From a virus (lineage: Duplodnaviria > Heunggongvirae > Uroviricota > Caudoviricetes), in the IMG/VR virus record IMGVR_UViG_2778260992_000001: a stretch of 64,000 nucleotides of DNA; one strand, written 5' to 3'. A model generated the notes under the pieces. That model was not told the DNA's origin. It saw only the letters and a list, made by a program, of their open reading frames with translations, and did not search any database. Position numbers and translations under genes: made by a program. This document shows positions 2,602 through 57,894 of the stretch, one piece after another (within the stretch, counting starts at the first letter, position 1; every line of letters begins with the position of its first letter).

Positions 2602-4710
2602 ATGTCTAAAAAACGTTCCATCAAAGAGGTTCAGGACTTCCGTGACAGTGTAAAACGAGTAGTCGCTCTCCTTTCAGGTAAAAACATCCCTGTTGCAGAA
2701 CGAGGGGACGACGCTTATGTACGCTATAACGATGATGGAGAGCCAATTCTCGTAAACATCCCATCAATCCCGGATAACGCAACACCGGCATTGATGAATG
2801 CTGTGCGCGGATTTCTCGATCATGAGGTTGCTCACATTTTGTTTACCGATATTCGTGTGTCCAACAAAATGAAAGAAAAAGGACGCGTTCCTTCCTGGTC
2901 GCTATGGAATGCCTTAGAAGACGTGTTCATCGAGCGAAAAATGGGTCAGGTCTTTAACGGAACAAGACGTAATCTGATGGCAACTCAGCGCCTTATAATC
3001 GAAAAAGTCTTTAAACCAAAGGCTTCAGAGGCTATTGCTTATTGTGGCAAAGATCAGCGCGCGCTTTTTCTAAACTTCTTTCTCTGTCCGGTTGTAAGAG
3101 CCTGGGATGGCCAAGCACCGTTCGTAGATTTCATGGATGAATATTGGCCTGTCATTGAGAAACCAATTTCATTATTAAAAGAACATGGTATCGATGTGGC
3201 CGTGCGTAACATGTCTTGCACCGAGGATTGTGTAAAGGTGGCTGCGACCATAGCTAAGATCCTCAAAGACACTGAAAGTGAAAGCAAAGGTAAGGAGTCA
3301 GCTCCGGGAAAAACTTCCGATCCTTCAGACGCTGACCAGACGGATGCCTCTGGAGAAAACAATGAAGACAACGAAGATCATGAGACACCCTCATTGTTAG
3401 ATAACCACAAATCTATCAAATCAGAATCACACAGTAACCACAAACATGATAATAACAACAGTGATGATTCAGATAATTCTGAATCATCAGAAACAATATT
3501 CGATGATACAGAAAATGATAAAGAGGTATCAGATTCTGATGCTTCTGATAACGCGGCGTCAGAATCATTAACCGCTGACCACGAAAAAAGAAAAACGACA
3601 GAAGACGGCTCTTCAGATATTCCAACTCCGTCAAAAATGAGTCTGGAAGAGGCTTTAGAGGAGCTGGATAGCATAGAAGATGAAGTCGGAGGCATGACAG
3701 AAGATGCTCTATCCGAAACGATTAAAAGCGAGTTAACAGAAAGCTCGAAAAGTGAATACAGGCCATACAATCGCTCATACGACTTCATCGGCTCGATTGA
3801 TCAGGCAGAAGCCCATATCAAACGGCTTATTAAAACATTCTCCGATATTGATTTAGGAGGATATCCAATCAGCCGCTATCGCATCGTTCCTGAAGGCAAC
3901 CAGCTCTTCGACAAATATATTGAAAAGCATCTTTCGTCAGGTGTTTCGTCGACGCTGGCAAAAGACCTGGAGCGAGCAATAGCAAGCAGAAACAGAGTTC
4001 AGTTTATACCGGGCCAGCGTCGGGGGCGCATTCATGGTTCTAGTATCTACAGATTAGCAATGAATGATGATCGCGTGTTTCGTAAAAAAGAAGAATCTAA
4101 AGCCGTTAATGCCTGTGTTCAACAAGTGATTGATTTATCAGGTTCAATGAGTGGTATAACGATACAATTGGCTCTTGCAAGTGCATATACCATCGCCGAT
4201 GCCCTTGATCGAATAAATGTTCCCAACATTATCACCGGCTTCACTACATTTGGTAGTCATATGGCGGCAGGAGAACTTAAGGCTGTCAAGTATGAGTTCT
4301 CTCGCTTTGAATCTTTAATGCTACCTATCATCAAAAATTGGAATGAAAAGGTAAATTCTCGCGAAGTTCGCTCACGTATGGGGTGCGTAGGCTACACATT
4401 CCCACTTCTTAATAACGTGGATGGTGAAAGCATAGCCAGCCTTGCATCGTTATTTTCCGGTCGCATGGAGGACAGGAAGATCATGCTTGTTCTGAGTGAT
4501 GGCGCGCCGTGGGCTGTTGGGAGAGGGTTTGACGCTCATTTGCGTTCGGTTGCGAAACAAATTGAAACGCAGACTGACATTGATTTGATGGCAATTGGCA
4601 TCATGACTGACGCACCGGAGAGATTTTACTCAAATCATGCCCTGGTAACGAGCGTTGATAGTCTTGGTTCATCTGTAGTTACTGAACTATCTCGTATCAT
4701 TTTGAAGTGA
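2602..4710 (+). CDS. CobT-like von Willebrand factor A (vWA) domain protein
   Basis: 702 aa; long acidic Ser/Asp/Glu-rich central region; C-terminal MIDAS motif DLSGSMSG; paired with downstream AAA+ ATPase. Confidence 0.7.
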   Translation: MSKKRSIKEVQDFRDSVKRVVALLSGKNIPVAERGDDAYVRYNDDGEPILVNIPSIPDNATPALMNAVRGFLDHEVAHILFTDIRVSNKMKEKGRVPSWSLWNALEDVFIERKMGQVFNGTRRNLMATQRLIIEKVFKPKASEAIAYCGKDQRALFLNFFLCPVVRAWDGQAPFVDFMDEYWPVIEKPISLLKEHGIDVAVRNMSCTEDCVKVAATIAKILKDTESESKGKESAPGKTSDPSDADQTDASGENNEDNEDHETPSLLDNHKSIKSESHSNHKHDNNNSDDSDNSESSETIFDDTENDKEVSDSDASDNAASESLTADHEKRKTTEDGSSDIPTPSKMSLEEALEELDSIEDEVGGMTEDALSETIKSELTESSKSEYRPYNRSYDFIGSIDQAEAHIKRLIKTFSDIDLGGYPISRYRIVPEGNQLFDKYIEKHLSSGVSSTLAKDLERAIASRNRVQFIPGQRRGRIHGSSIYRLAMNDDRVFRKKEESKAVNACVQQVIDLSGSMSGITIQLALASAYTIADALDRINVPNIITGFTTFGSHMAAGELKAVKYEFSRFESLMLPIIKNWNEKVNSREVRSRMGCVGYTFPLLNNVDGESIASLASLFSGRMEDRKIMLVLSDGAPWAVGRGFDAHLRSVAKQIETQTDIDLMAIGIMTDAPERFYSNHALVTSVDSLGSSVVTELSRIILK

Positions 4711-4805: not shown

Positions 4806-6041
4806 ATGACGACTACTGCACTGCAAAATGAAAAAAATCATTCTGATTACCTTGTTTGCAAGTGGTGCGGAAAATCATTTCACTATTTTAAGTCCCATGT
4901 AGCCAATGGTAATTGCGAGGGCATTCCTGAGTCAGTAAAAGATGCCGATCCTGACACCGTACTGAAAATGTACACAACACAGTTTCCAGATGAGCCAACG
5001 CTATCGAAAAAGGCACTTGATGCAATTCAAGCTAAACGTGCCGAGCAAAAAAGCGAAATGGCCAAATCATCTGGCGTGACCAGTAGCCCAGGCTACACAG
5101 GCACAGTTGAGTACAAGACAGATCTGGTCGCAGCTCACGAACTGCTAAATGTAACGGTGAAAGAACTCGGAACAAAACGTGGGACGCCGCTCATGGTTAG
5201 CGTCAACGTCAATACGCCGTTTCCAGAGTTCGTTCCAGAAGTGAAGAAGGGATACGTATATGGCGACTTCGAACTGATCAAAGACATTTTCATGATGCTT
5301 GAACTTGGCATACCTGGCTATTTGTGGGGTCATGCAGGAACAGGCAAATCTTCATTGCCTACACAACTATGTGCTTTGCTCAATCGTCCGTTAATCCGTG
5401 CCCAACATACAGCATCAATGGAAGAGGCTCATGTTACGGGACAAATTCTGGCGCGTGATGGCTCTACGTATTTCGAGCCTGGCTTGCTTGCGCTCGCAAT
5501 GAAGCATGGCTGGGTTTACCTCGCGGATGAATACGACTTTGCGTTTCCACAGATTCTTGGCGTGTATCAGCCAGTGCTGGAAGGTGAAGCGTTGGTCATC
5601 AAAGAGGCGACTCCAGAATGGCGTCGCATTACTCCGCATGAACGGTTTGCTTTCATTGGCACTGGCAACACGAACGGATCTGGTGATGAAACCGGCTTGT
5701 ACCAGGGTACAAACATCCAGAACGCCGCGAACTTTTCGCGTTTTGGCATCGTTTCGAATGTGAAATACATGAGCAAAGAGGCAGAGATCAACATGTTGAT
5801 AAATGCCGGTATCGTGGATGAATACGCAGAAAAGATGGTTAAGTTTGCCGGTATCGTTCGCGATGGATACGAAGAACACCTTATCAGTCAGCCAATTGGC
5901 CCTCGTGAACTTTTGTTGTCGGCCAAGATTGGAATGATGCGAGGCGACTTTGTGACAGGTATTGAGCGTTCTTTCATTAACAAACTCCCTTCAGCTTCTG
6001 CGCAAGCGGCACGTGAAGTTGTTCAAAAAATATTTGGTTAA
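4806..6041 (+). CDS. CobS-like / MoxR-family AAA+ ATPase
   Basis: Walker A GHAGTGKS, Walker B-like VYLADEYD; partner of the vWA protein. Confidence 0.7.
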   Translation: MTTTALQNEKNHSDYLVCKWCGKSFHYFKSHVANGNCEGIPESVKDADPDTVLKMYTTQFPDEPTLSKKALDAIQAKRAEQKSEMAKSSGVTSSPGYTGTVEYKTDLVAAHELLNVTVKELGTKRGTPLMVSVNVNTPFPEFVPEVKKGYVYGDFELIKDIFMMLELGIPGYLWGHAGTGKSSLPTQLCALLNRPLIRAQHTASMEEAHVTGQILARDGSTYFEPGLLALAMKHGWVYLADEYDFAFPQILGVYQPVLEGEALVIKEATPEWRRITPHERFAFIGTGNTNGSGDETGLYQGTNIQNAANFSRFGIVSNVKYMSKEAEINMLINAGIVDEYAEKMVKFAGIVRDGYEEHLISQPIGPRELLLSAKIGMMRGDFVTGIERSFINKLPSASAQAAREVVQKIFG

Positions 6042-13772: not shown

Positions 13773-14846
13773 ATGGCAAAAGGAAAATCCGCACTGGCAC
13801 TTGCTCTGAAAAAGAAAATCGGTAGCAACGACGAAATTCAGAAAGTAACTCATTGGATTGATACAGGCTTTCCACCGTTAAACAAAGCTATTTCTGGTCG
13901 TTACGATGGCGGCTTCCCATGTGGTCGTATCGTCGAAGTATTCGGTCCTCCAAGTGCAGGGAAAACGTTCCTTGCAACAGCAGCGATGATCTCCGCTCAA
14001 AAACAAGATGGTCTGGCGGTATTCCTCGATCATGAAAACAGTTTTGACGTTGGCCTGGCTGTAGCCAATGGCCTGAACGCAGATGAGGATGACGGTCAGT
14101 GGGTATACAAGCAGCCAGATACCTTCGAAGACTCTGTAGAGTTGATCGGCACAATACTTAAATTGGTTCGTGATGAAGAGCTTATCCCCGAATCAGCACC
14201 TATCTGTATCGTGGCTGACTCTCTTGCGTCTATGGTTCCGAACTCCAAAGCCGAGAAGTTCGAAAAGATGGCTGAAGGCACTGCCAAAGACAAAGATCAG
14301 CTAAACATGAACGACAATACGGCACTGGCTCGTGCGACGAGTGCGAACTTCCCTACTCTGGCTTTGTGGGCACGCAAATACAACGCCTGCATCATCTTCT
14401 TGAATCAGGTTCGCACAAAAATCGGTGTAATGTTTGGCGACCCTACTACGTCGCCAGGTGGAGATTCACCGAAGTTCTACGCTTCTGTACGTATCCGTCT
14501 TGGTGCATCGGTGATGAAGGATGGTAAAGAGAAGATCGGCCAGGACGTAGGCGCAGAATGCATCAAAAACAAAGTTGCACCACCGTATGGCAAATGCACC
14601 TGGAAATTCTACTTCGATCCTACTCGTGGCCTCGACGTTATCGAATCGCTCGTCGAGTACATGCTGGAAGAAGGATACCTGCCAAAGAACGCCAGCGGGC
14701 GAGTTGAAATTGGTGACAAGAAATACACCAAATCGCAGATCGTCGAGATGTATCGGGAGAAGCCACTGGCTGAAATCATTGCGGCTTTGCAGGCAATCGA
14801 CGACCGAAGAGCAAAAGACAACCCCACCGAGTCAGTAGAAGAGTAA
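13773..14846 (+). CDS. RecA/UvsX-family recombinase
   Basis: Walker A GPPSAGKT in RIVEVFGPPSAGKTFLA; RecA-like length and core. Confidence 0.75.
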   Translation: MAKGKSALALALKKKIGSNDEIQKVTHWIDTGFPPLNKAISGRYDGGFPCGRIVEVFGPPSAGKTFLATAAMISAQKQDGLAVFLDHENSFDVGLAVANGLNADEDDGQWVYKQPDTFEDSVELIGTILKLVRDEELIPESAPICIVADSLASMVPNSKAEKFEKMAEGTAKDKDQLNMNDNTALARATSANFPTLALWARKYNACIIFLNQVRTKIGVMFGDPTTSPGGDSPKFYASVRIRLGASVMKDGKEKIGQDVGAECIKNKVAPPYGKCTWKFYFDPTRGLDVIESLVEYMLEEGYLPKNASGRVEIGDKKYTKSQIVEMYREKPLAEIIAALQAIDDRRAKDNPTESVEE

Positions 14847-17615: not shown

Positions 17616-17631
17616 ATATTTCATAGTCGTC

Positions 17632-18164
17632 ACCGCTGACAGCATACACAATCAATTACCGCTGATAGCATATCGAGAGTTTATCTCACCGCTCACAGCA
17701 TACTTTACTCGATTTTTTACCGCTGACAGCATACTTAAGACATTGCATGAATAATGTGTACCGGTATGGGTATAACCAGAACAAAATTACCGCTGGCAGC
17801 ATACGAAGGTCTGACATATACCATTAATTACCGCTGATAGCATATCCAAACAAAAATTCCTCAATAAAACACCGCTGACAGCATACGTTCTATCAGGGAG
17901 CAGCAGGCAATAAATGCCTTTCACTACAAGCAATCAGCGCAACGGCAATAGAATGTTAGTGAGCGCAAACCTATATGGAATGCACTCTTCGAGGTTAGTA
18001 ACCACTGGGGAGGTATGCCAGAGCATTGAGTGGTGATAGATGATTTACCGCTCACAGCATACGTTTATCTCACTATACCGCTGGTAGCATATCTTTAACC
18101 GTTCACAGCATACTTTTCAGAAAAATAGCCGCTGATAGCATACATTTCACCGCTGACAGCATAT
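17632..18164. repeat. incA-like iteron array (12 copies of ACCGCTGACAGCATAC and variants)
   Basis: 16-bp direct repeats at irregular 25-45 bp spacing downstream of repA, as in P1 incA. Confidence 0.8.
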
Positions 18165-19258: not shown

Positions 19259-19278
19259 GTGGACACCTTTGTCATTCA

Positions 19279-19380
19279 ACCGCTGACAGCATACTTGATT
19301 TGCCGCTGACAGAATACCAAAAACAGTTGGCAGCATACGGTGAACCGCTGACAGACTATCAATTACCGCTGACAGCATAC
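19279..19380. repeat. origin iterons (about 5 copies of ACCGCTGACAGCATAC family) upstream of repA
   Basis: Same repeat as the downstream array, between repA start and the GATC cluster. Confidence 0.8.
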
Positions 19381-49049: not shown

Positions 49050-49206
49050 CCCGTCTCCTTTATTTTAATTTGCGCAATTGTCGCCTTGTAGTGTACTCCA
49101 GCTACGACATTTAATCATTTATGAGAAATGCTGTTATCACATGGCAGACATAAGGCCATTTTGTTACTATCAAGCCCCTTTTCACTACAAAGAAGTAATG
49201 CCTACT

Positions 49207-51240
49207 ATGACCCAAGTCGCGAAGAAAATTCTGGTGACGTGCGCGCTGCCGTACGCTAACGGCTCAATCCACCTCGGCCATATGCTGGAGCACATCCAGG
49301 CTGATGTCTGGGTTCGTTACCAGCGAATGCGCGGCCACGAGGTTAATTTCATCTGTGCCGACGATGCCCACGGTACGCCGATCATGCTGAAAGCACAGCA
49401 GCTTGGTATCACACCGGAACAGATGATTGGCGAAATGAGTCAGGAACACCAGACTGATTTTGCAGGCTTTAACATCAGCTATGACAACTATCACTCGACG
49501 CACAGCGAAGAGAACCGTCAGTTGTCCGAGCTTATCTATACTCGCCTGAAAGAGAACGGTTTTATTAAAAACCGCACCATCTCTCAGCTGTACGATCCGG
49601 AAAAAGGCATGTTCCTGCCGGACCGTTTTGTGAAAGGCACCTGCCCGAAATGTAAAGCACCGGATCAATACGGCGATAACTGTGAAGTCTGCGGCGCTAC
49701 TTACAGCCCGACTGAACTGATCGAGCCGAAATCGGTAGTTTCTGGTGCTACGCCGGTAATGCGTGATTCCGAACACTTCTTCTTTGATCTGCCTTCTTTC
49801 AGCGAAATGTTGCAGGCATGGACCCGCAGCGGTGCGTTGCAGGAGCAGGTGGCAAACAAAATGCAGGAGTGGTTTGAATCTGGCCTGCAACAGTGGGATA
49901 TCTCCCGCGATGCGCCGTACTTCGGTTTTGAAATTCCGAACGCACCGGGCAAATATTTCTACGTCTGGCTGGACGCGCCGATTGGCTACATGGGTTCCTT
50001 CAAGAATCTGTGCGACAAACGCGGCGACACTACCAGCTTCGACGAATACTGGAAGAAAGACTCCACCGCCGAGCTGTACCACTTCATCGGTAAAGATATC
50101 GTTTACTTCCACAGCCTGTTCTGGCCTGCCATGCTGGAAGGCAGCAATTTCCGCAAGCCGACCAACCTGTTTGTTCATGGCTATGTGACGGTGAACGGTG
50201 CGAAGATGTCCAAGTCTCGCGGCACCTTTATTAAAGCCAGCACCTGGCTGAATCATTTTGACGCTGACAGCCTGCGTTACTACTACACTGCGAAACTCTC
50301 TTCGCGCATTGATGATATCGATCTCAACCTGGAGGATTTCGTTCAGCGCGTGAATGCCGATATCGTGAACAAAGTGGTTAACCTGGCCTCCCGTAATGCA
50401 GGCTTTATCAACAAGCGTTTTGACGGCGTGCTGGCAAGCGAACTGGCTGACCCGCAACTGTACAAAACCTTTACTGATGCTGCTGAAGTGATTGGTGAAG
50501 CATGGGAAAGCCGCGAATTTGGTAAAGCGATTCGTGAAATCATGGCGCTGGCTGATCTGGCTAACCGCTATGTCGATGAACAGGCTCCGTGGGTGGTGGC
50601 GAAGCAGGAAGGGCGCGATGCCGATCTGCAGGCGATTTGCTCTATGGGCATTAACCTGTTCCGCGTGCTGATGACGTACCTGAAACCGGTACTGCCGAAA
50701 CTGACTGAACGTGCAGAAGCATTCCTGAATACAGAACTGACCTGGGATGGTATCCAGCAACCGCTGCTGGGCCATAAAGTGAATCCGTTCAAGGCACTGT
50801 ATAACCGCATCGACATGAAGCAGGTTGAAGCACTGGTGGAAGCATCCAAAGAGGAAGTAAAAGCCGCTGCCGCGCCAGTAACTGGCCCACTGGCAGATGA
50901 TCCGATTCAGGAAACCATCACCTTTGACGACTTCGCCAAAGTTGACCTGCGCGTGGCTCTGATTGAAAACGCGGAGTTTGTCGAAGGTTCTGACAAACTG
51001 CTTCGCCTGACGCTGGATCTCGGTGGCGAAAAACGTAATGTCTTCTCCGGCATTCGTTCCGCTTATCCAGATCCACAGGCACTGATTGGTCGTCACACCA
51101 TTATGGTGGCCAACCTGGCTCCGCGTAAAATGCGCTTCGGTATCTCCGAAGGCATGGTGATGGCTGCTGGCCCCGGCGGGAAAGATATCTTCCTGTTAAG
51201 CCCGGATGCTGGTGCTAAACCAGGCCACCAGGTTAAGTAA
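49207..51240 (+). CDS. metG: methionyl-tRNA synthetase (host-type)
   Basis: [26 protein letters not shown] (HIGH) and KMSKS motifs; essentially the E. coli-type MetG sequence; start set at MTQVAKK, 43 codons inside the track ORF. Confidence 0.95.
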
Positions 51241-51323
51241 TTAAGCAACCATTCTTCACAATGCCCGGCAATACGCTGGGCATTTTCATTTAGACACAAT
51301 CCCTTCTGATTTACACATACCCT

Positions 51324-51338
51324 AAAACAATTTGTTTT
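51324..51338. promoter_or_regulatory. class-1 palindromic element AAAACAATTTGTTTT (first of a tandem pair)
   Basis: First element-type motif after the metG stop; second copy GAAAACAACTTGTTTT at about 51374-51389. Confidence 0.5.
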
Positions 51339-51401
51339 CTGCCTTTTGTTGATTGAGATAATAAACCACATAAGAAAACAACTTGTTTTGGAGTGGTTTA
51401 A

Positions 51402-51701
51402 ATGTTGAACATTACCCAAGCCTACCAGGTGGCATTGATCAGCTCATCTCATACATCAGAGGAAGATGCTCGCCGATTCATGATCGCAAGCAATGAGCTG
51501 GATTGGGTTTCACAAATTGAGTACGGTTGCATTGTCCACGCCGGGTTACAGGATGATGTCTGGAAAGACAACTTGCGTCGATATGGTATATCCGAGGGCG
51601 CGATTTCGAACATTCAGAAGGTACTTGATGTAGGCTTCGACTCTGTACATTTCGATTGTGGCGCACCGGTCGTTGAAGGGCTTGAGTGCTGGCAATGGTA
51701 A
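51402..51701 (+). CDS. hypothetical protein
   Basis: 99-aa ORF with class-1 elements upstream. Confidence 0.5.
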   Translation: MLNITQAYQVALISSSHTSEEDARRFMIASNELDWVSQIEYGCIVHAGLQDDVWKDNLRRYGISEGAISNIQKVLDVGFDSVHFDCGAPVVEGLECWQW

Positions 51702-51737
51702 TCCGGCAATCGCTTCATACTAGATAACGGAGAATTT

Positions 51738-51923
51738 ATGCTTAAAGAAGACTCATATCTACTAAAGGCGCTTGAAATGCGTGGCGTTGAACCTACAGTG
51801 AAAAACGCCCACGATATCTACCTTCAGTTTTCACCGGAGCTGAAACGGCTCATAAATCAATACGGGGTTAATGACTCAAGTGTTAAAGCGATGATAGATG
51901 ATGAATTAGACCATCTCATCTAA
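51738..51923 (+). CDS. hypothetical small protein
   Basis: 61-aa ORF. Confidence 0.4.
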   Translation: MLKEDSYLLKALEMRGVEPTVKNAHDIYLQFSPELKRLINQYGVNDSSVKAMIDDELDHLI

Positions 51924-52075
51924 TCGTTATCCTATGATAATGGTTTCACTTTGAGATTGTCATTTTTCATAGCCAAAGCTGATGTTTGTGGAAGGTGGAT
52001 TGATAAACGGATGCGTATTTAGGTTATACAAGTGAGAAAATTGATAATATATAAAAGCGATTTTTATGTGATGGA

Positions 52076-52645
52076 ATGGATGTGATGGAAACCCAGAACC
52101 AACAAACAAAACCTCTGAATAACATTTATGCGTGGATTCTAGCGTTCATGCCTTTCTTCTTTGGAGTATTGCCGGAAGAGTATACCAATTACGCTATTAT
52201 AATTGGGGGTGTAACTACCATCGGTTTGTTAGTAGCTGACAGAATGGCTCTATCGGAGTCTGGCTGTGAACCACCTTCAATTCTATGGGGGGTATTCCTC
52301 CTGCCTGTCTATCTCTGGAAGCGCGCGACTATTACAAAAGGCAGCAGAGTGCCATTTATCATAATCGTTGCGTCGCTGGCTTGGATTATCTTCATCGGCA
52401 TCCCACACAAGGACGAGGTTGCTCTTGAAGAAGCAGCCTGCCCTCTCGTGACAACTATTCTGAAAGAGAATAACGGTTCGACTGCACCAAAATGTATGAA
52501 GGTGACAATAGAGGACAAGGTGACGGATAAGTTCTATAGAGCAACGGCTACACTAGACAATGGTAATGACATTAACATTACTCTGGAACTTACCGGTGAC
52601 AGGAACTTCTACGTCCGTGTTCCAAATGTTTATCTGAACAACTAA
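52076..52645 (+). CDS. hypothetical membrane protein
   Basis: 189 aa; N-terminal hydrophobic helices, soluble C-terminal domain. Confidence 0.5.
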   Translation: MDVMETQNQQTKPLNNIYAWILAFMPFFFGVLPEEYTNYAIIIGGVTTIGLLVADRMALSESGCEPPSILWGVFLLPVYLWKRATITKGSRVPFIIIVASLAWIIFIGIPHKDEVALEEAACPLVTTILKENNGSTAPKCMKVTIEDKVTDKFYRATATLDNGNDINITLELTGDRNFYVRVPNVYLNN

Positions 52646-52759
52646 CGGTTGCAACTTATTGATAATGGCGGTCACAATTTGATTCTTTTCTATAAGAATC
52701 CGTTGATCGCCACTACTCCCCTTCCATACCTGCAATCATACCCTTAAATATCAATAGGT

Positions 52760-53560
52760 TATGGTTGTTTATACAAATAAGAAAACAACTAAATAACAGA
52801 TCAACGAAACGTCAACGCTTTCACCCGATTTGGTCTAAAAAATTGACGTTTTCACACATCACTTCTTATACCCGTAACTCTACGCAGCAGACAGCGCCAC
52901 AGCGTCCAATTTTCACCACAGACGACCCAACACACTACCAACAAAAACACACGCTCAAAATCGCTCCCGTTGCGTTACGCAACCATATAAACAACTTATT
53001 TTCAGGCATAACAAAACAACTAAATAACACACATGCCATTCCCAAAAACAACCAACCTCTTTATGGCAGGCTACCGAAAAGACCCACCTCTTCTCCCCAG
53101 GCTACCGGACAACCAACCTAACTTTCACAGGCAATCCGAAAACATTCATACGCGCGATACCCACGACACGCCATTACCCAAACAGCGAAGAAATACCAGA
53201 CTCACTGAAACCCCAACGAAGCCTGTTACCGCAAGGATTCTCTCAATCCCAAAAGACACGAAACAGAACAATCACGGGAAACGCCATTACCCAATACACG
53301 AATAACTACAAAAGCCTTTCAGGCACTCCAGACAAACAACTCAAACACAATAACGAAAGCAATCGCCCACCTGCCATTACTCCATACACGGAGAAGAACA
53401 ATCACCAAAACGACGAGAACACCCCATAGAAGAACCACCGCAAAACGAACGAAACCACATACACCGACAGAGAAAACAACACACCCAATTCACCAACAGA
53501 AATAGTCGCCGTATAGGACATTCTGGAAGGAGTGAGCATTAACGCCTATAGAGAGGTTGA
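52760..53560 (+). repeat. strongly strand-asymmetric A+C-rich, G/T-poor tract with degenerate internal repeats (candidate ncRNA or Rho-loading region)
   Basis: By eye about three-quarters or more A+C on the + strand over about 0.75 kb; repeated GCCATTACCCAA and AAAACAACTAAATAACA units; putative -35 TTGACG (52843-52848) and -10-like at 52866-52871; track ORFs here are low-complexity. Confidence 0.5.
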
Positions 53561-53618
53561 GACAGATAAAACACAACATGTATAGCGAAGAAGCCAGGTA
53601 TGTATAAGTGGGGATGGA

Positions 53619-53645
53619 AGGAGGGGTGTCGCCTCCTTTTTCGTA
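53619..53645 (+). terminator. rho-independent terminator closing the A+C-rich tract
   Basis: AGGAGG-ggtgtcg-CCTCCT followed by TTTTCGTATTT. Confidence 0.6.
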
Positions 53646-53699
53646 TTTATTCAACTCCTGATTTTATCCCCCGTAACACCCCTACGGTCAGCCTTCGGT

Positions 53700-53840
53700 C
53701 CATACAGGGGAAAGGCTGCATCCCGCTACAGAAACGGCTGGGTTGCCTTTGGGAACGGCTGGAGGTTTTCAGGGAAACGGTCGAGTTGCCTGTGTGGATT
53801 TCGGGAAAAGGCTCGATGCCGGTTCAGGAACGGTGGCGTA
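53700..53840. repeat. cluster of GRAAACGGC repeats (copy 1)
   Basis: GGGAAAGGCTG, AGAAACGGCTGG, GGGAACGGCTGG, GGGAAACGGTCG, GGGAAAAGGCTCG, GGAACGGTGG within about 140 bp. Confidence 0.55.
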
Positions 53841-54167
53841 CCGGTATAGCGAGAGGGAGAGTTGCGGCTACCCACCTGTAATGTGCGGGAAGAAGAGAGG
53901 CGCTCACGTAGGCGGACTTGCTTACCGCTGGATTCCCTCTGAATGCCCAGCTACAGCGTAATTGTGCCAGACAGCCAACGGGTCACAATCGATTTCAGTA
54001 GGTTTTTGGGGAGAGGATTACTCTGCCACCAGCCACTTTCGGCCACTAAATCAGAATAATGTAAAAAGTGTACTCGGTACTGAACCTGAAAACTCACTGC
54101 CAAAACCACATTCACCGGAACAAAATCCTTTTTCGCCTGTGCGTTATTGCGATAATAACACCATCAA

Positions 54168-54182
54168 GAAAACATGTTGTTT
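54168..54182. promoter_or_regulatory. class-1 element GAAAACATGTTGTTT with extended -10-like TGCGATAAT upstream
   Basis: CGATAAT-ACACCA-CAAGAAAACA block conserved with the 56.3 and 56.8 kb copies. Confidence 0.5.
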
Positions 54183-54194
54183 AAGGATTGCTTT

Positions 54195-54524
54195 ATGTTT
54201 ACAAATATCGACATCAACCAAATCAAGAAATTAACTCAAAAAGAGTTTGATCAGTTTTATGAGTTAGAAGGTTGGTCTTCCACTCTGATCAATTCAAGAT
54301 GGGTGCTGGAACTGATGACTCGTGATGACGCACCTGCTTTGATGATCAGCGACCTGGGTGAAGATGCTGACTTTATGGATATGAGCGAATTTTGTGTGGA
54401 CACATACAACCGCAGCCAGAAGTACTACTTCACATGCGATAGCGAAAATGACGTGATTTCTAAGGTCTATCTTCACCTCGTCCAGCATTGGGACGTTCAG
54501 GAGTTTCTTGAAGTATTCGAGTAA
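54195..54524 (+). CDS. hypothetical small acidic protein
   Basis: 109 aa, Asp/Glu-rich; start at ATG after AAGGA RBS. Confidence 0.5.
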   Translation: MFTNIDINQIKKLTQKEFDQFYELEGWSSTLINSRWVLELMTRDDAPALMISDLGEDADFMDMSEFCVDTYNRSQKYYFTCDSENDVISKVYLHLVQHWDVQEFLEVFE

Positions 54525-54650
54525 CCCCAACCAAAGCCAGCATTGCTGGCTTAATTTCTCTATAGCCGCAGGGAAGAACCTGCATATAGCTCATGCACCT
54601 GATCAATATGCTTTGTAGCCGTTTTCTTACTGGTATTATTTACGCCATTG

Positions 54651-54668
54651 AGAAAACAAGTTGTTTAC
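54651..54668. promoter_or_regulatory. class-1 palindromic element GAAAACAAGTTGTTTAC
   Basis: Upstream of the 54678 start. Confidence 0.5.
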
Positions 54669-54677
54669 GGAGTTGTG

Positions 54678-54989
54678 ATGAAAAAATCATTGGTTCTTGG
54701 TCTGGACAAAGACCAGAAGAGAAAAGAGAAGCCTGCGCTGGTTGCTCAATTAACTTTGCTGGACATCGTTGCCAATGGAACCTCTATTCGTCTGTTCCGT
54801 GAAACAGCGGTGTCTTTCGATAAAAACACCTTTACTCGTTATGTAATGAATGTTCGTCGCCAGCGTGGAAAAGGCTGGGTGGCATTTCAAAGAATGTGGC
54901 CGGAACATCAGCTCGAACTGGCTTTGATGGAAGTTAACCGCGTGGCCCAGCAAGAGATTCAGAGAGCATCAGTGATGGCAATAGCCTGA
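54678..54989 (+). CDS. hypothetical small basic protein
   Basis: 103 aa; start at ATG after GGAG (track ORF begins at a TTG codon, 54648). Confidence 0.5.
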   Translation: MKKSLVLGLDKDQKRKEKPALVAQLTLLDIVANGTSIRLFRETAVSFDKNTFTRYVMNVRRQRGKGWVAFQRMWPEHQLELALMEVNRVAQQEIQRASVMAIA

Positions 54990-55022
54990 TAATGTGCAAG
55001 TGGTAATTAGTCGACCGTACGA

Positions 55023-55050
55023 CAGCCCCGCCATCCTTACGGGGCTTTTT
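55023..55050 (+). terminator. rho-independent terminator
   Basis: AGCCCCG-ccatccttac-GGGGCT followed by TTTTTT. Confidence 0.65.
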
Positions 55051-55055
55051 TGTAT

Positions 55056-55071
55056 TGTAAGTACATACTTA
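55056..55071. promoter_or_regulatory. class-2 palindrome GTAAGTACATACTTAC
   Basis: Perfect 7-bp arms; between terminator and next gene. Confidence 0.45.
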
Positions 55072-55115
55072 CGATCATAGAATATAAAAATAACCAAAAC
55101 ACTACGGAGAGTGAA

Positions 55116-55511
55116 ATGACCGTTAAACGCGAAAAACTGACAGTTGATGTTTACTATGCCTCTGAAACCGCCGAAGGTAAGAATGTGGCAAAAATCACCG
55201 TTGTTACGTACAACACCGAAACTGGTGCCGAAGTCCAGGCCAGTACGATCGTGCGTAAAGGTGATGCCTCCGGCGGCGAGTACGCGACTCAATACCAGTC
55301 CATTCTCGATGCAACTGACCCGCTGCTGCTGAAAATCGAGAACTACTTCCGCCAGGTTAATGAAGAGGTGTTTGAAACCATGATGAATATGGTTAACACC
55401 GTATTCGCCTCCAGCCTGAATACCAACACTACCTGGATTGGTCAGTACGGCCTGCGCATTACCTCTGGCATTCCTGCCGACACCTTAATCCCTGAAAGCG
55501 TATTCGCTTAA
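55116..55511 (+). CDS. hypothetical protein
   Basis: 131 aa; start at ATG after GGAG RBS. Confidence 0.5.
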   Translation: MTVKREKLTVDVYYASETAEGKNVAKITVVTYNTETGAEVQASTIVRKGDASGGEYATQYQSILDATDPLLLKIENYFRQVNEEVFETMMNMVNTVFASSLNTNTTWIGQYGLRITSGIPADTLIPESVFA

Positions 55512-55520
55512 TCCTCTTTA

Positions 55521-55550
55521 AATGGCGCGTAAACCGCGCCATTTTATTAT
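55521..55550 (+). terminator. rho-independent terminator
   Basis: AATGGCGCG-taaac-CGCGCCATT followed by TTATTAT. Confidence 0.65.
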
Positions 55551-55557
55551 GCCCGAT

Positions 55558-55570
55558 AACAATTTGTTTT
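55558..55570. promoter_or_regulatory. class-1 palindromic element AACAATTTGTTTT
   Basis: Same AACAATTTGTTTTCTGCC block as at 51.3 kb. Confidence 0.5.
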
Positions 55571-55628
55571 CTGCCTTATCTGATTTGTGAAAATGATTTC
55601 ACTGAAGCAACTTAATAAGGAAACCATC

Positions 55629-56003
55629 ATGGGACTTGATATCTATATCGAGACGCAGCCTAAAAACGATCTGAATAACGAGGCATCCAGAAAGCAGGTT
55701 GCTTACTTCCGTAAGTTCAATGCGCTCGTTGGGTGGATGGAGCGCAACGTAGGTGAAGTCGAAAATTGTGAGCTTTTAGAATTAACGATGAATGACATTT
55801 GTTTTCTGAAGGCTCATTTGATGCACATAAACGAAAGTAATTGCGAAGAGTACTTGCCTACCCGGGAAGGTTTTTTCTTCGGCAGTCAGGAGTACGATGA
55901 AGGTTACTGGCATGATGTGGGGCAGTTGAAAGAGCTTGTGGAAGATCTGATTAAGAACCACGACTTTCACAATAACAGACTGACCTTCTGCGCCTGGTGG
56001 TAA
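55629..56003 (+). CDS. hypothetical small acidic protein
   Basis: 124 aa; start at ATG after AAGGA RBS (track ORF begins at GTG 55587). Confidence 0.5.
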   Translation: MGLDIYIETQPKNDLNNEASRKQVAYFRKFNALVGWMERNVGEVENCELLELTMNDICFLKAHLMHINESNCEEYLPTREGFFFGSQEYDEGYWHDVGQLKELVEDLIKNHDFHNNRLTFCAWW

Positions 56004-56154
56004 ATATGGGCGATTTCAAGAAACGCCTGAAGGAAAGAGCCGAGATGGTCAGAAAGCAAAACGCCTCTTCTGTCATCAGATACGCAAGGCAGTTTAGTCG
56101 CAACAACAAATCAGTTGAGGAAAAGATCCTTAGCGTAATCGGGCGATAATTATT

Positions 56155-56178
56155 AAGGCCACCAGCATTGGTGGTCTT
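56155..56178 (+). terminator. hairpin AAGGCCACCAGCATTGGTGGTCTT (repeat copy 1)
   Basis: Near-identical copy at 56625-56648; both followed by AAATGACT. Confidence 0.5.
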
Positions 56179-56304
56179 AAATGACTTTTAATAACCGAAG
56201 GTTAGTTTGAAACCTGGCTATCAACTTCCATAACCTTTCTTGTGTATTCAGCCTGTATTAACTTCTTTTATGCCTTATCTACACTGCGATAATTACACCA
56301 ACAA

Positions 56305-56319
56305 GAAAACAACATGTTT
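56305..56319. promoter_or_regulatory. class-1 element GAAAACAACATGTTT with upstream TGCGATAAT
   Basis: Conserved promoter block. Confidence 0.5.
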
Positions 56320-56338
56320 ACGCAGTTAGGATATGCTC

Positions 56339-56620
56339 ATGACTGATTTCACCATTACCCCTAAAGCACAAAATGTATTTCTTGAATCATGGCTGGACTT
56401 GCCGGAAACAGAACAGCAAGAAATGGATCATGTGGATTATGACGAGCAGGTAAGCACGCGATTCTTCCACTTTGAGGGATGCGTTTACGACATTGTCGAC
56501 TTCATGCGAGATGACCGCTTCCCTGAATGGCACGCAAGCTATCCACTAAACGCCTTTGCCATGCTGATGATCCGTGTGGATGATTCAGGGGATACCATCG
56601 ACATCGGTCTGCTCCACTAA
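56339..56620 (+). CDS. hypothetical small acidic protein
   Basis: 93 aa, strongly acidic (DLPETEQQEMDHVDYDEQ); start at second ATG with better RBS spacing. Confidence 0.5.
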   Translation: MTDFTITPKAQNVFLESWLDLPETEQQEMDHVDYDEQVSTRFFHFEGCVYDIVDFMRDDRFPEWHASYPLNAFAMLMIRVDDSGDTIDIGLLH

Positions 56621-56624
56621 AGGC

Positions 56625-56648
56625 TAAGGCCACCAGCATTGGTGGCCT
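56625..56648 (+). terminator. hairpin AAGGCCACCAGCATTGGTGGCCTT (repeat copy 2)
   Basis: Perfect stem; duplicate of the 56155 hairpin. Confidence 0.5.
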
Positions 56649-56789
56649 TAAATGACTATCTTGTTTCCCGCAGGCTAAAAACACCAACCTCTTACCTCCA
56701 GGCAACCGACAAACCCACCTGTTCCCGTCCGGCTACCGTAACTTTCCACTTTGACGCCTTATTCGTACAACGATAATTAACACCAACAA

Positions 56790-56803
56790 GAAAACAATTT
56801 GTT
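56790..56803. promoter_or_regulatory. class-1 element GAAAACAATTTGTT with upstream CGATAAT
   Basis: Conserved promoter block. Confidence 0.5.
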
Positions 56804-56824
56804 ATTTACGATAAGGAATTAATC

Positions 56825-57307
56825 ATGAATTTTATCGCTACTGTAAACGCACCCGCACATGGCAATATCGCTGTAACGTTCTCTGACATTGAAAAACGAG
56901 TACTTGGTGCATGGCGCGACAATGAGACGGTAGAACTGTCAGCACAAGAAAAATGCATTATTGCACGCGACATCATTGGCAATCGTCGTTACTCGCGGGT
57001 ATTTGAAAAAGCGTATGTGGTAAATTCTGGATTCGGAACGTTCGTCTTTCCGGTGCGCTCCGGGCGATTCTGCCAGTCCAAGCTGATTGAGTTCGCTACG
57101 CAGATTTCTGTCTGGATTAAAACTCAATCGTCGTTCAAATTTTCCGACGATGAAGCAGTATCGCAGGGGATGCGGATCGCCAACAATGCAATTAAATGCA
57201 AAAACATTACGTATACCGCTGGCGTTGATACATGGAAACTGTTTTGCGCTAACTTTATGCTGAATGTATACGCAAGCAACCGCATCCACATCCTTGATGG
57301 CGTGTAA
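56825..57307 (+). CDS. hypothetical protein
   Basis: 160-aa ORF; terminator hairpin GGGCC-agaaac-GGCCC downstream. Confidence 0.5.
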   Translation: MNFIATVNAPAHGNIAVTFSDIEKRVLGAWRDNETVELSAQEKCIIARDIIGNRRYSRVFEKAYVVNSGFGTFVFPVRSGRFCQSKLIEFATQISVWIKTQSSFKFSDDEAVSQGMRIANNAIKCKNITYTAGVDTWKLFCANFMLNVYASNRIHILDGV

Positions 57308-57314
57308 CTGAGAA

Positions 57315-57500
57315 GAGGGCCAGAAACGGCCCTTTCTCTATAGCCACCAGCTGCCGCAGGGAAATTTTCAGAAACGGCGAGGAACGTATTCATGAGCCGA
57401 CGGGAAACGGCCAGGATTTTTTCGGGAAACGGCTGCATTCGCCTTTATGTAGAAAAAACATCGGGAAGCTGGTGGAATCCAACCAGCGGTTGTCGGACAG
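57315..57500. repeat. cluster of GRAAACGGC repeats (copy 2)
   Basis: CAGAAACGGCCC, CAGAAACGGCGAGG, GGGAAACGGCCAGG, GGGAAACGGCTGC, GGGAAGCTGG; TTCTCTATAGCC also shared with the 54.55 kb region. Confidence 0.55.
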
Positions 57501-57894
57501 GTGAGCGGGGAAAATTATGATGACTTTCGTCACCTGAGACATCCAGATTTCTTTCGTAGCATAATCACATACGTGATTAAGTGGTGTGATTATGTGAAAA
57601 ATCACGCGCACATAATACGCGAGCGGATACAGAACAAAACAAAATGCCGATCCGCACCGACAAATAAACGCGGATCACATAGCAAGACTAAAAGCCAATG
57701 ATTAACCATACTCTATAGCGCAATATAACGCGTTTTAAGCGCGTTAATGTGTTAAGTAATGGGTATGTACTGGCAAGGATATAAAAGCGCGTCTATGGCG
57801 TTATTTTGGTGCTTATTTTTATGTTGTTGGAGTGAGTTAAAGACAATAAAAAACGCGCCATTGATGGCGCGTTATTGTGGAAGTATTGGAAACG

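Follow-up and report, generated by a model that had tools for sequence, protein, structure and literature searches.

Why would a phage keep, in the largest gene-free gap of its genome, some 630 nucleotides (nt) of non-coding DNA of which one strand is made mainly of A and C? The question is raised by a 64,000-nt stretch of a tailed-phage genome of the class Caudoviricetes (IMG/VR record IMGVR_UViG_2778260992_000001; this whole stretch is hereafter the window, and positions are counted from its first letter), in which an initial annotation, made from the letters alone, had singled out positions 52,760-53,645 as an A+C-rich, G/T-poor tract that might encode a long non-coding RNA. Here we describe this tract together with the conserved modules around it (M1, M2, M4 and M5; Table 1), and we tentatively read it as a cis-acting barrier or leader at which Rho enters the nascent transcript, a reading that we regard as a good possibility, short of probable.

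The strand asymmetry is real and sustained, as sliding-window composition and skew confirm. The annotated interval contains 38.4% A, 29.0% C, 15.5% G and 17.2% T (A+C 67%), and its core at 52,860-53,500 is 39.6% A, 33.7% C, 12.5% G and 14.2% T (A+C 73%). Across the window, segments of 600 base pairs (bp) average 50.2% A+C with a standard deviation (sd) of 3.2, and the peak of 74%, in the segment starting at 52,897, lies more than 7 sd out; the top-scoring A/C segment is 52,914-53,502, and within the tract GC skew falls to -0.57 and AT skew rises to +0.66. For 500-bp segments the tract reaches 74.8% A+C, compared with 59.8% elsewhere in the window and 71.6% (the next value being 66%) in a chance sample of 589 kb of unrelated DNA; the sole unrelated locus of comparable asymmetry lies at about position 4,379 of a contig from a Patescibacteria metagenome-assembled genome (L112; 71.6% A+C or G+T over 500 bp). 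The G-poor zone extends from about 52,705 to about 53,530 and encloses the A/C-rich core at 52,881-53,510, which has 73% A+C, a C/G ratio of 2.6 and a G+C content of 45%. The interval drawn initially therefore contains the G-poor core, but its last 135 bp (53,511-53,645) are not A/C-rich and the zone itself starts further upstream. On the scale of the replicon no switch in GC or keto skew coincides with the gap, and no canonical G-quadruplex, Z-DNA-type alternation, H-DNA motif or long purine or pyrimidine tract was found. Independently of the gap, the plus strand has more G than C nearly throughout the replicon, and almost all genes are co-directional.

Sites of Rho utilization (rut), such as lambda tR1, are C-rich, G-poor and unstructured. 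On its plus strand the tract has just such a profile, as had been proposed, with a C/G ratio of 2.6 over 628 nt and by far the longest C>G run on either strand. The C/G ratio stays at or above 1.5 in 693 consecutive 78-nt windows (52,764-53,533), a run five times longer than the next longest on either strand (at most 140 windows), and YC dinucleotides number 14 per 100 nt in the tract compared with 9.9 in the window. The expectation that a transcript would be unstructured is likewise supported by prediction: plus-strand RNA of the tract folds at -0.115 kcal/mol/nt, five sd weaker than other pieces of the window (-0.283 +/- 0.031 kcal/mol/nt), and neither strand has structure beyond that of shuffled sequences (z -1.2 for the plus strand and +1.0 for the minus strand).

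Translation of such an RNA is equally hard to envisage. The open reading frames (ORFs) in the tract, which had been set aside as artefacts, are kept neither in position nor in frame and have no Pfam matches, and one relative has none of at least 50 amino acids. They exist because stop codons are scarce, one per 45 codons, on a strand so poor in T and G. ATG, GTG and TTG together occur three times in 628 nt, compared with 7.1 expected, and the insertions and deletions that distinguish tracts (1, 2, 3, 11, 12, 14, 23 and 24 nt) include frame-breaking ones. Among public contigs, the spurious tract ORF was seen in one short contig, which was uninformative. A protein-coding or degraded gene was rejected, there being no conserved ORF and no protein-family homology. 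Rfam 15, searched over 51,000-55,500, returned two chance-level matches (E 1.3 and 2.7), both far under the gathering scores and neither in the tract.

The position of the tract becomes clear from its relatives. A 1,051-bp segment around the tract has counterparts, 80-99% identical (three of them weaker), in 243 of 5,426 complete E. coli genomes. In every case the match lies on a plasmid of about 110 kb, never in a chromosome, and there is no annotation beneath it. The same DNA is found in Escherichia phages Cyrano, CMS-2020a and PhiR41_1, and the tract region is about 70% identical to that of Salmonella phage SSU5 and of Klebsiella phage-plasmids. PLSDB holds 839 plasmids with the element, nearly all of them non-mobilizable, from Klebsiella (431), Escherichia (224), Enterobacter (90), Salmonella (49, including pHCM2 of S. 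Typhi), Citrobacter (25) and Cronobacter (9), and the gap is thus known from six enterobacterial genera. All nine plasmid records taken for annotation were typed as IncFIB. These matches to phage-plasmids and the plasmid typing together indicate that the window is part of an SSU5/pHCM2-type phage-plasmid. We found no annotation, Rfam family or paper describing the element.

In this replicon of 108.6 kb, the tract lies within a gene-free gap of about 1.5 kb, the largest of all, just 3' of the metG gene. Upstream of the gap is variable cargo (metG, apbC) and downstream a conserved plus-strand run of small genes. The E. coli-type cargo comprises metG, apbC and small ORFs; in Salmonella and Enterobacter its place is taken by DUF1380 and other small genes, and in Klebsiella by an island with a type I restriction-modification (R-M) system and DUF262 on the opposite strand. 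Homology between lineages begins abruptly at about 52,657, exactly at the end of the variable cargo. The small proteins encoded next to the gap gave no matches in PHROGs (by function), Pfam, NCBIfam or PADLOC.

The cargo region is of interest in its own right. An exchange hot spot occupies 49,078-52,645 and the counterparts in relatives L002-L009, with metG, apbC and an S24 peptidase in the E. coli types DUF1380, ydfZ and LprI-like genes in others, and the type I R-M/DUF262 island in Klebsiella; a methionyl-tRNA synthetase borne by a phage-plasmid is itself worthy of note. In addition, M1, M2 and the first ~200 bp of the tract occur as a broken-off copy in large Klebsiella IncFIB/IncHI1B plasmids (L130 and L131; match at 5,001-5,455). 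These hosts, of 150-270 kb, are not phage-plasmids, and the copy moves with the R-M/DUF262 island. We set such partial copies aside as remnants carried with that island; they are evidence for recombination at the boundary of cargo and backbone.

RNA sequencing (RNA-seq) of LF82/Cyrano lysogens, reported in an S1 Table as log2(FPKM+5), where FPKM is fragments per kilobase per million mapped reads, covers this boundary (PMC9928086). CYRAN_102 is expressed at 50-64 FPKM in LB medium and at ~590 FPKM at 6 h (sample B6), whereas CYRAN_103, which corresponds to 52,765-53,121 of the window, has 0 FPKM in overnight LB, ~2 in B6 and ~0-14 in all other samples (PMC9928086). The former ends 111 nt 5' of the latter on the same strand, and no canonical intrinsic terminator is predicted between the two in Cyrano. 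An active CYRAN_102, a silent CYRAN_103 and the lack of a predicted terminator together suggest that plus-strand RNA is removed at the entrance of the G-poor zone by some non-classical means. Because the downstream operon is expressed in the lysogens without expression of the tract, its genes must have a promoter of their own. This silence also speaks against the abundant sponge RNA that had been imagined (PMC9928086). Elsewhere in the same data, CYRAN_43, a hypothetical protein adjoining the integrase, reaches 723x the prophage background in lysogens and the putative repressor CYRAN_45 10x (PMC9928086).

The gap is also conserved, as a check named by the initial annotation would have it: the tract is present and constrained in relatives. 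All nine lineages have an A/C-rich segment of 513-589 bp at the same place (C 33-35%, G 12-17%), even though the lineage tracts are only 67-73% identical to that of the window. An independent probe, consisting of an M2 motif outside the tract, found 14 further loci, all of which also have M1, and in each of the 14 an A/C-rich tract follows, with 64-74% A+C and between two and five copies of GCCATTMC; M1, M2 and tract always occur together. When the window is compared with the SSU5, pHCM2 and Klebsiella lineages, the genes next to the gap are only 33-51% identical at fourfold-degenerate sites, which is near saturation, and their proteins only 38-87% identical. By comparison, identities of 0.72-0.97 are found in M1, M2 and the intervals 52,922-52,970, 53,050-53,100, 53,351-53,420 and 53,427-53,510. 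Because these islands contrast with near-saturated synonymous sites, the gap is under stronger constraint than the adjacent genes, a sign of purifying selection. In M1 the mean pairwise identity among four lineages is 0.82-0.88, and in the part of the tandem units at 53,050-53,100 it is 0.80-0.86. Elsewhere composition is held while sequence drifts: 53,141-53,365 is only 0.49-0.54 identical between distant lineages, and the linker at 52,705-52,771 only 0.46-0.64, yet C-rich in all. The substitution spectrum was uninformative on selection, as it fits saturation for the tract's composition, with G and T conserved to no greater degree than A and C.

Signals that could start or end a transcript are less clear. 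A sigma70-like promoter had been suggested at the start of the tract, but a scan that required -35 and -10 hexamers separated by 16-18 nt, an A at position -11 and a T at -7 found no plus-strand promoter in 51,900-54,400 and no plus-strand site in relatives L006, L007 and L002, and the sequence around 52,765-52,795 shows no conservation. A single candidate is conserved, TTGACG-18-TATACC in M2, which has C at -7 and fails the scan in all lineages tested. M2, which can also be described by its TCAACG/GTTGAC repeats, might serve as an imperfect promoter or an operator region, or might form a minus-strand hairpin; its hairpin TGACGT...ACATCA is predicted to fold better on the minus strand. In M1 the sequence of the inner stem varies by lineage and its pairing is kept, with G:U pairs on the plus strand only. 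At the other end, the hairpin and T-tract described initially are indeed present, as a 10-pair stem and T-run at 53,617-53,642. The M4 hairpin is predicted in all lineages (free energy -9 to -19.5 kcal/mol) with a conserved (T/A)TCGC loop, but its U-rich tail is confined to the E. coli and Klebsiella lineages, and most SSU5/pHCM2/Enterobacter-type sequences have only 2-4 U in 10 nt. Of the 11 consensus pairs, two differ in both bases between lineages, and G:C and G:U make up the majority; the many G:U pairs mean that the structure, if real, would form in plus-strand RNA. M4 thus looks like an intrinsic terminator in this lineage, and a conserved terminator role is not clearly supported by the alignment. 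Two further ideas about these modules were rejected: an invertible segment between CTTATAC and GTATAAG, which have one orientation in all relatives, and GTATAAG as a phage-wide promoter element, as it has 6 copies in 64 kb and shows no enrichment.

In E. coli the termination factor Rho keeps foreign DNA and prophages silent, and we propose the following mechanism. RNA polymerase moving rightward would yield several hundred nt of untranslated, structure-free, C-rich and G-poor RNA, the substrate on which the Rho of the host preferentially loads, so that the tract would serve in cis as an oversized rut-type zone. Such a zone would halt or attenuate transcription coming from the exchangeable cargo that is expressed in the lysogen, or alternatively from a weak or regulated start in M2, and the conserved M4 hairpin might be a pause or end point. 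As a result, the regulatory arrays and the small-gene operon downstream would be shielded from uncontrolled read-through, and the conserved motif islands may be sites for a factor that modulates the barrier. We favour this account because it best joins the composition, the lack of translation, the position between cargo and backbone and the silence in lysogens despite strong upstream transcription. From these features we infer Rho as the factor, the plus strand as the relevant one, and insulation or attenuation as the function under selection.

Several observations sit uneasily with a Rho-entry barrier. The tract exceeds 6- to 8-fold the length that a rut site requires, and the depletion of T alongside G is not required for Rho, which favours pyrimidines. 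In Cyrano the RNA signal disappears ahead of the tract or right where it begins, for which M1 and the first C-rich linker could be enough, and the drop in FPKM across the tract comes from a library of unchecked strandedness and depth. In Klebsiella the nearest upstream genes point away from the gap and the tract is still fully retained. No convincing promoter was found on either strand. Finally, motif islands (GCCATTAC in 3-5 copies, CAGGCTACC in three, and 53,351-53,420) would not be expected of a purely compositional signal.

These motifs extend beyond the tract. Degenerate repeats had been noticed from the start, and we find four copies of GCCATT(A/C)C, irregularly spaced at 40-137 bp, and the 22-nt A-rich AAGAAAACAAnTAAATAACA box, with the consensus ATAAsAAAACAACTAAATAACA, at 52,777 and 53,008, together with the tandem 31-nt units (three helical turns each), which were absent from the earlier list. 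GCCATTAC is invariant and present in 3-5 copies per lineage, far more than composition predicts; on the minus strand it reads GTAATGGC, mostly inside GGGTAATGGC, and is similar to GGGAA(A)CGGC or GGGAAAAGGC, the repeat of M5, of which four more copies lie at 57,323-57,440, beyond the operon of small genes. The strict pattern GGG(N)AAYGGC, written after the data had been seen, is confined in the 108.6-kb replicon to the tract (minus strand), M5 and the 57,402/57,424 cluster, with ~0 expected in the gap. In an unbiased k-mer test of the tract against the reverse complement of M5 (k=12, 2 mismatches), the fraction of values at or above the observed one was 0.007-0.04 in three lineages, and there was no signal in Klebsiella; we therefore regard the kinship between tract and M5 motifs as tentative. 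RNA-RNA pairing of the tract with M5 is predicted to be no better than with shuffled M5. Because the M5 cores are conserved while their spacers diverge, the spacing is 21-32 bp and neither strand has RNA structure beyond shuffles (z -0.3 and +0.4), M5 suggests a site of protein binding to DNA.

Viewed as a plus-strand motif, (C/T)(A/G)G(G)AAACGGC(N)G has six copies at 53,700-53,860 and four at 57,318-57,440; the two clusters, with conserved cores and variable spacers, flank the conserved small-gene operon at 54,174-57,307 and look like paired protein-binding arrays, comparable to ori/crr or operator pairs. Between M5 and the first gene after the gap, the palindrome GTTATTGCGATAATAAC (54,143-54,159), kept in the E. 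coli, L002-L004 and Klebsiella lineages and not in those of the SSU5/pHCM2 type, looks like an operator at the operon's own promoter.

Such arrays raise the question of whether the gap works as DNA rather than RNA. It would then be the platform of a nucleoprotein complex, whether as a lytic origin together with its accessory site, as a site for partition or packaging, or as an extended operator. On that account, which we consider rather unlikely, the arrays of short motifs would bind a phage protein and the A+C/G+T asymmetry would serve a DNA process, for example by keeping a displaced strand free of hairpins for the loading of helicase and primase or by providing an unstructured transcript whose R-loop primes replication. 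It would suit the largest gene-free region of the replicon, the silence of its RNA in lysogens, the M5 array, the confinement of the strict pattern, tandem units that are whole numbers of helical turns, and the constant company of M1, M2 and tract; the phage encodes a replisome (DnaE, DnaB-like helicase, primase, ligase and RNase H), and its lytic origin is unassigned. However, a tract of 45% G+C is not easily melted, its motif copies are irregularly spaced, their link to M5 is modest in the unbiased test, and the RepA iterons are unrelated. Nor does the skew switch globally at the gap, the replication genes lie ~45 kb away, and the canonical DNA-structure motifs are missing. Profile searches of the small proteins brought up no candidate binding protein, and the account gives no clear reason for the strand asymmetry.

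Closest to the original idea is a discrete, trans-acting long non-coding RNA of the lytic phase. At ~765 nt, it would begin near 52,880 and finish with the hairpin at 53,642, and after induction it would titrate Rho or a different host protein that binds single-stranded RNA (S1, Csp proteins, PNPase) and so favour phage transcription. The conserved M2 candidate promoter with its upstream A-tract stands immediately before the start of the core, the end hairpin has a T-run in this lineage, M4 pairing favours the plus strand, the composition is ideal for Rho binding, and a lytic-specific promoter would be compatible with silence in lysogens. We nevertheless think it improbable, for the candidate promoter departs from consensus in every lineage, the U-tail of the terminator is absent from the SSU5, pHCM2 and Enterobacter lineages, and M2 is without the palindromes found beside the prophage repressor gene. 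An untranslated, unstructured RNA would, moreover, itself soon be terminated and degraded. Motif classes of the known sponged proteins are not enriched either: the AAN richness once invoked for Hfq did not hold up ((ARN)3 5 compared with 5.4 expected, (ARN)4 1 with 1.2, (AAN)4 0 with 0.4; z -0.1 to -0.6), and CsrA-type GGA motifs number 4 with 4.2 expected in composition-matched shuffles, with essentially no hairpins. Less credible still is a G/U-rich RNA of the minus strand, made by leftward transcription across the tract and terminated by hairpins within M2 or close to 52,950. The M2 hairpin (UGAUGU-GUGAAA-ACGUCA then U6) does score as a minus-strand terminator, as does GCGCUUCUGAGCGU followed by GUCUGUUUUU in relatives, but these hairpins are weak and lineage-specific, neither the scan nor conservation points to a minus-strand promoter on the right-hand side of the tract, the neighbouring genes are all on the plus strand, the locus has essentially no RNA signal in LF82, and minus-strand structure does not exceed that of shuffles; we regard it as very unlikely. 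Least plausible of all, and scarcely worth entertaining, is a degraded gene or functionless spacer of odd composition: the drift within 53,141-53,365 and the saturation-like substitution spectrum would fit it, but it has to contend with an extreme composition held in all lineages while synonymous sites saturate, with islands 0.8-0.97 identical, with the lack of protein-family homology, and with the presence of the element in ~840 plasmids and in 243 of 5,426 complete E. coli genomes. To something other than a Rho-entry barrier and these four alternatives we leave a small chance.

Table 1 Modules and repeats of the gene-free gap, mapped by alignment of nine lineages and then of 36 non-redundant IMG/VR and GTDB sequences
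Feature	Position	Strand	Description
M1	52,657-52,720	+	First conserved module directly after variable cargo; nested inverted repeats, the outer ones TGGCGGTCA (52,666-52,674) and TGATCGCCA (52,704-52,712) enclosing an inner hairpin around TATAAG
Linker	52,705-52,771	+	G-poor, C/T/A-rich; onset of G-poor zone, 60 nt past the upstream stop codon
M2	52,772-52,880	+	Highly conserved (identity 0.83-0.91 among four lineages); AAGAAAACAAnTAAATAACA box copy 1 (52,777-52,798), two direct TCAACG repeats (52,801-52,817), A-tract, TTGACG (52,843-52,848), 18-nt spacer, TATACC (52,867-52,872)
Core A+C-rich tract	52,881-53,510	+	Non-coding, predicted unstructured
AAGAAAACAAnTAAATAACA box copy 2	53,008-53,029	+	231 nt after copy 1, 95% identical; both copies in relatives
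Dispersed GCCATT(A/C)C copies	53,035-53,401	+	At 53,035, 53,170, 53,283 and 53,373; every lineage has 3-5 copies
Three tandem 31-nt units	53,046-53,137	+	Each ends CAGGC(T/A)A(C/T)C
Conserved block	53,351-53,420	+	Best-conserved part of the tract; invariant 17-mer GCCATTACTCCATACAC at 53,373-53,389
Variable linker	53,511-53,600		Balanced composition; lineage-specific deletions; identity 0.12-0.43, gaps 21-33 nt
M4	53,603-53,665	+	Conserved GTATAAG, purine-rich arm, (T/A)TCGC loop, pyrimidine-rich arm; hairpin 53,617-53,642
M5	53,700-53,860	+	G-rich array, six GG(G)AA(A)(A/C)GG(C/T) motifs spaced ~21-32 bp
Variable stretch, then palindrome	3' of M5, before first gene

Among known systems, the tract most readily invites comparison with Rho-dependent terminators such as lambda tR1 with rutA and rutB, which share a C-rich, G-poor, unstructured and untranslated sense RNA followed by a hairpin or pause region, and which lie, as here, between transcription units of a temperate phage. 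Those rut sites measure ~70-100 nt, compared with ~630-770 nt for the tract, which is also U-poor and has conserved repeated motifs. The long Rho-sensitive 5' leaders of rho, mgtA, corA and rpoS, in which termination is modulated by factors or small RNAs, resemble it in being long untranslated leaders before an operon, and the repeated motifs of the tract could likewise be sites for a factor that switches termination; unlike those leaders, the gap is followed by genes with their own promoter, and Rfam recognises no riboswitch or small-RNA site in it. CrcZ and CrcY (Hfq/Crc, through the A-rich AANAANAA) and CsrB and RsmZ (GGA in loops) are similar in that several hundred nt of candidate non-coding RNA carry short repeats; they differ in that ARN, AAN and GGA occur at chance in the tract, which has no stem-loops and no expression in lysogens. 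Iteron arrays (P1 oriR/incA, P4 ori/crr, SPP1 oriL/oriR) recall M5, whose motifs stand about two helical turns apart with conserved cores and variable spacers and have a second cluster 3.6 kb away, but the likeness holds for M5 and not for the tract, and neither an adjacent initiator gene nor an AT-rich unwinding element is present. R-loop origins (ColE1 RNA II, T4 oriF/oriG, the T7 primary origin) similarly have a promoter-like element at the head of non-coding DNA several hundred bp long, and the replicon encodes its own RNase H; G-rich RNA, however, is what favours stable R-loops, and RNA from the tract would be G-poor.

The SSU5/pHCM2-type phage-plasmids are common in clinical Enterobacteriaceae and carry cargo that includes dfrA genes, R-M systems and toxins. 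The previously unannotated element stands where exchanged cargo meets conserved backbone, and it is better conserved than the adjacent proteins. Should it be a Rho insulator, it would allow a mobile element to accept arbitrary transcribed cargo with its own lytic and lysogenic control undisturbed, and it would represent a naturally optimised, portable transcription barrier, one that is unusually large, conserved and motif-bearing for a barrier of the Rho type. There is also a slim chance of something bolder: that an induced A/C RNA of ~0.75 kb acts as a Rho sponge, giving antitermination in trans across co-directional operons, or forms a long R-loop lytic origin whose displaced strand loads helicase and primase, the GCCATTAC and GGGAAACGGC arrays being control sites. 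A Rho-titrating RNA or R-loop origin of this sort would be a new kind of phage device.

Other regulatory sequences of the replicon were compared with the gap. RepA iterons were rejected as a source of its motifs because their sequence, ACCGCTGACAGCATA, is different; this 21-bp-phased iteron has 16 copies in clusters at 17,626-18,163 and 19,273-19,379, presumably the RepA iterons of the IncFIB(pHCM2) origin and copy control, with repA placed approximately through a near-identical plasmid. Operators of the prophage repressor type (GGTAAG-N2-CTTACC) were likewise rejected for M1 and M2, from which they are absent. In Cyrano, the region at 14,600-14,810 between the repressor CYRAN_45 and CYRAN_46 has the palindrome GGTAAGTGCTTACC, further GGTAAG/CTTACC half-sites and an adjoining GTATAAG -10-like element, and probably comprises the repressor operators and an early lytic promoter; its equivalent in the window is near 2,100-2,300. 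Chi sites (GCTGGTGG) number 14 in the 64 kb, near the density of the E. coli chromosome and well over chance. Lastly, the convergent intergenic region at 57,540-57,780, which follows the small-gene operon, has inverted repeats of the ATAATCACA/TGTGATTAT type and AT-rich stretches, and may be another regulatory region or an origin.

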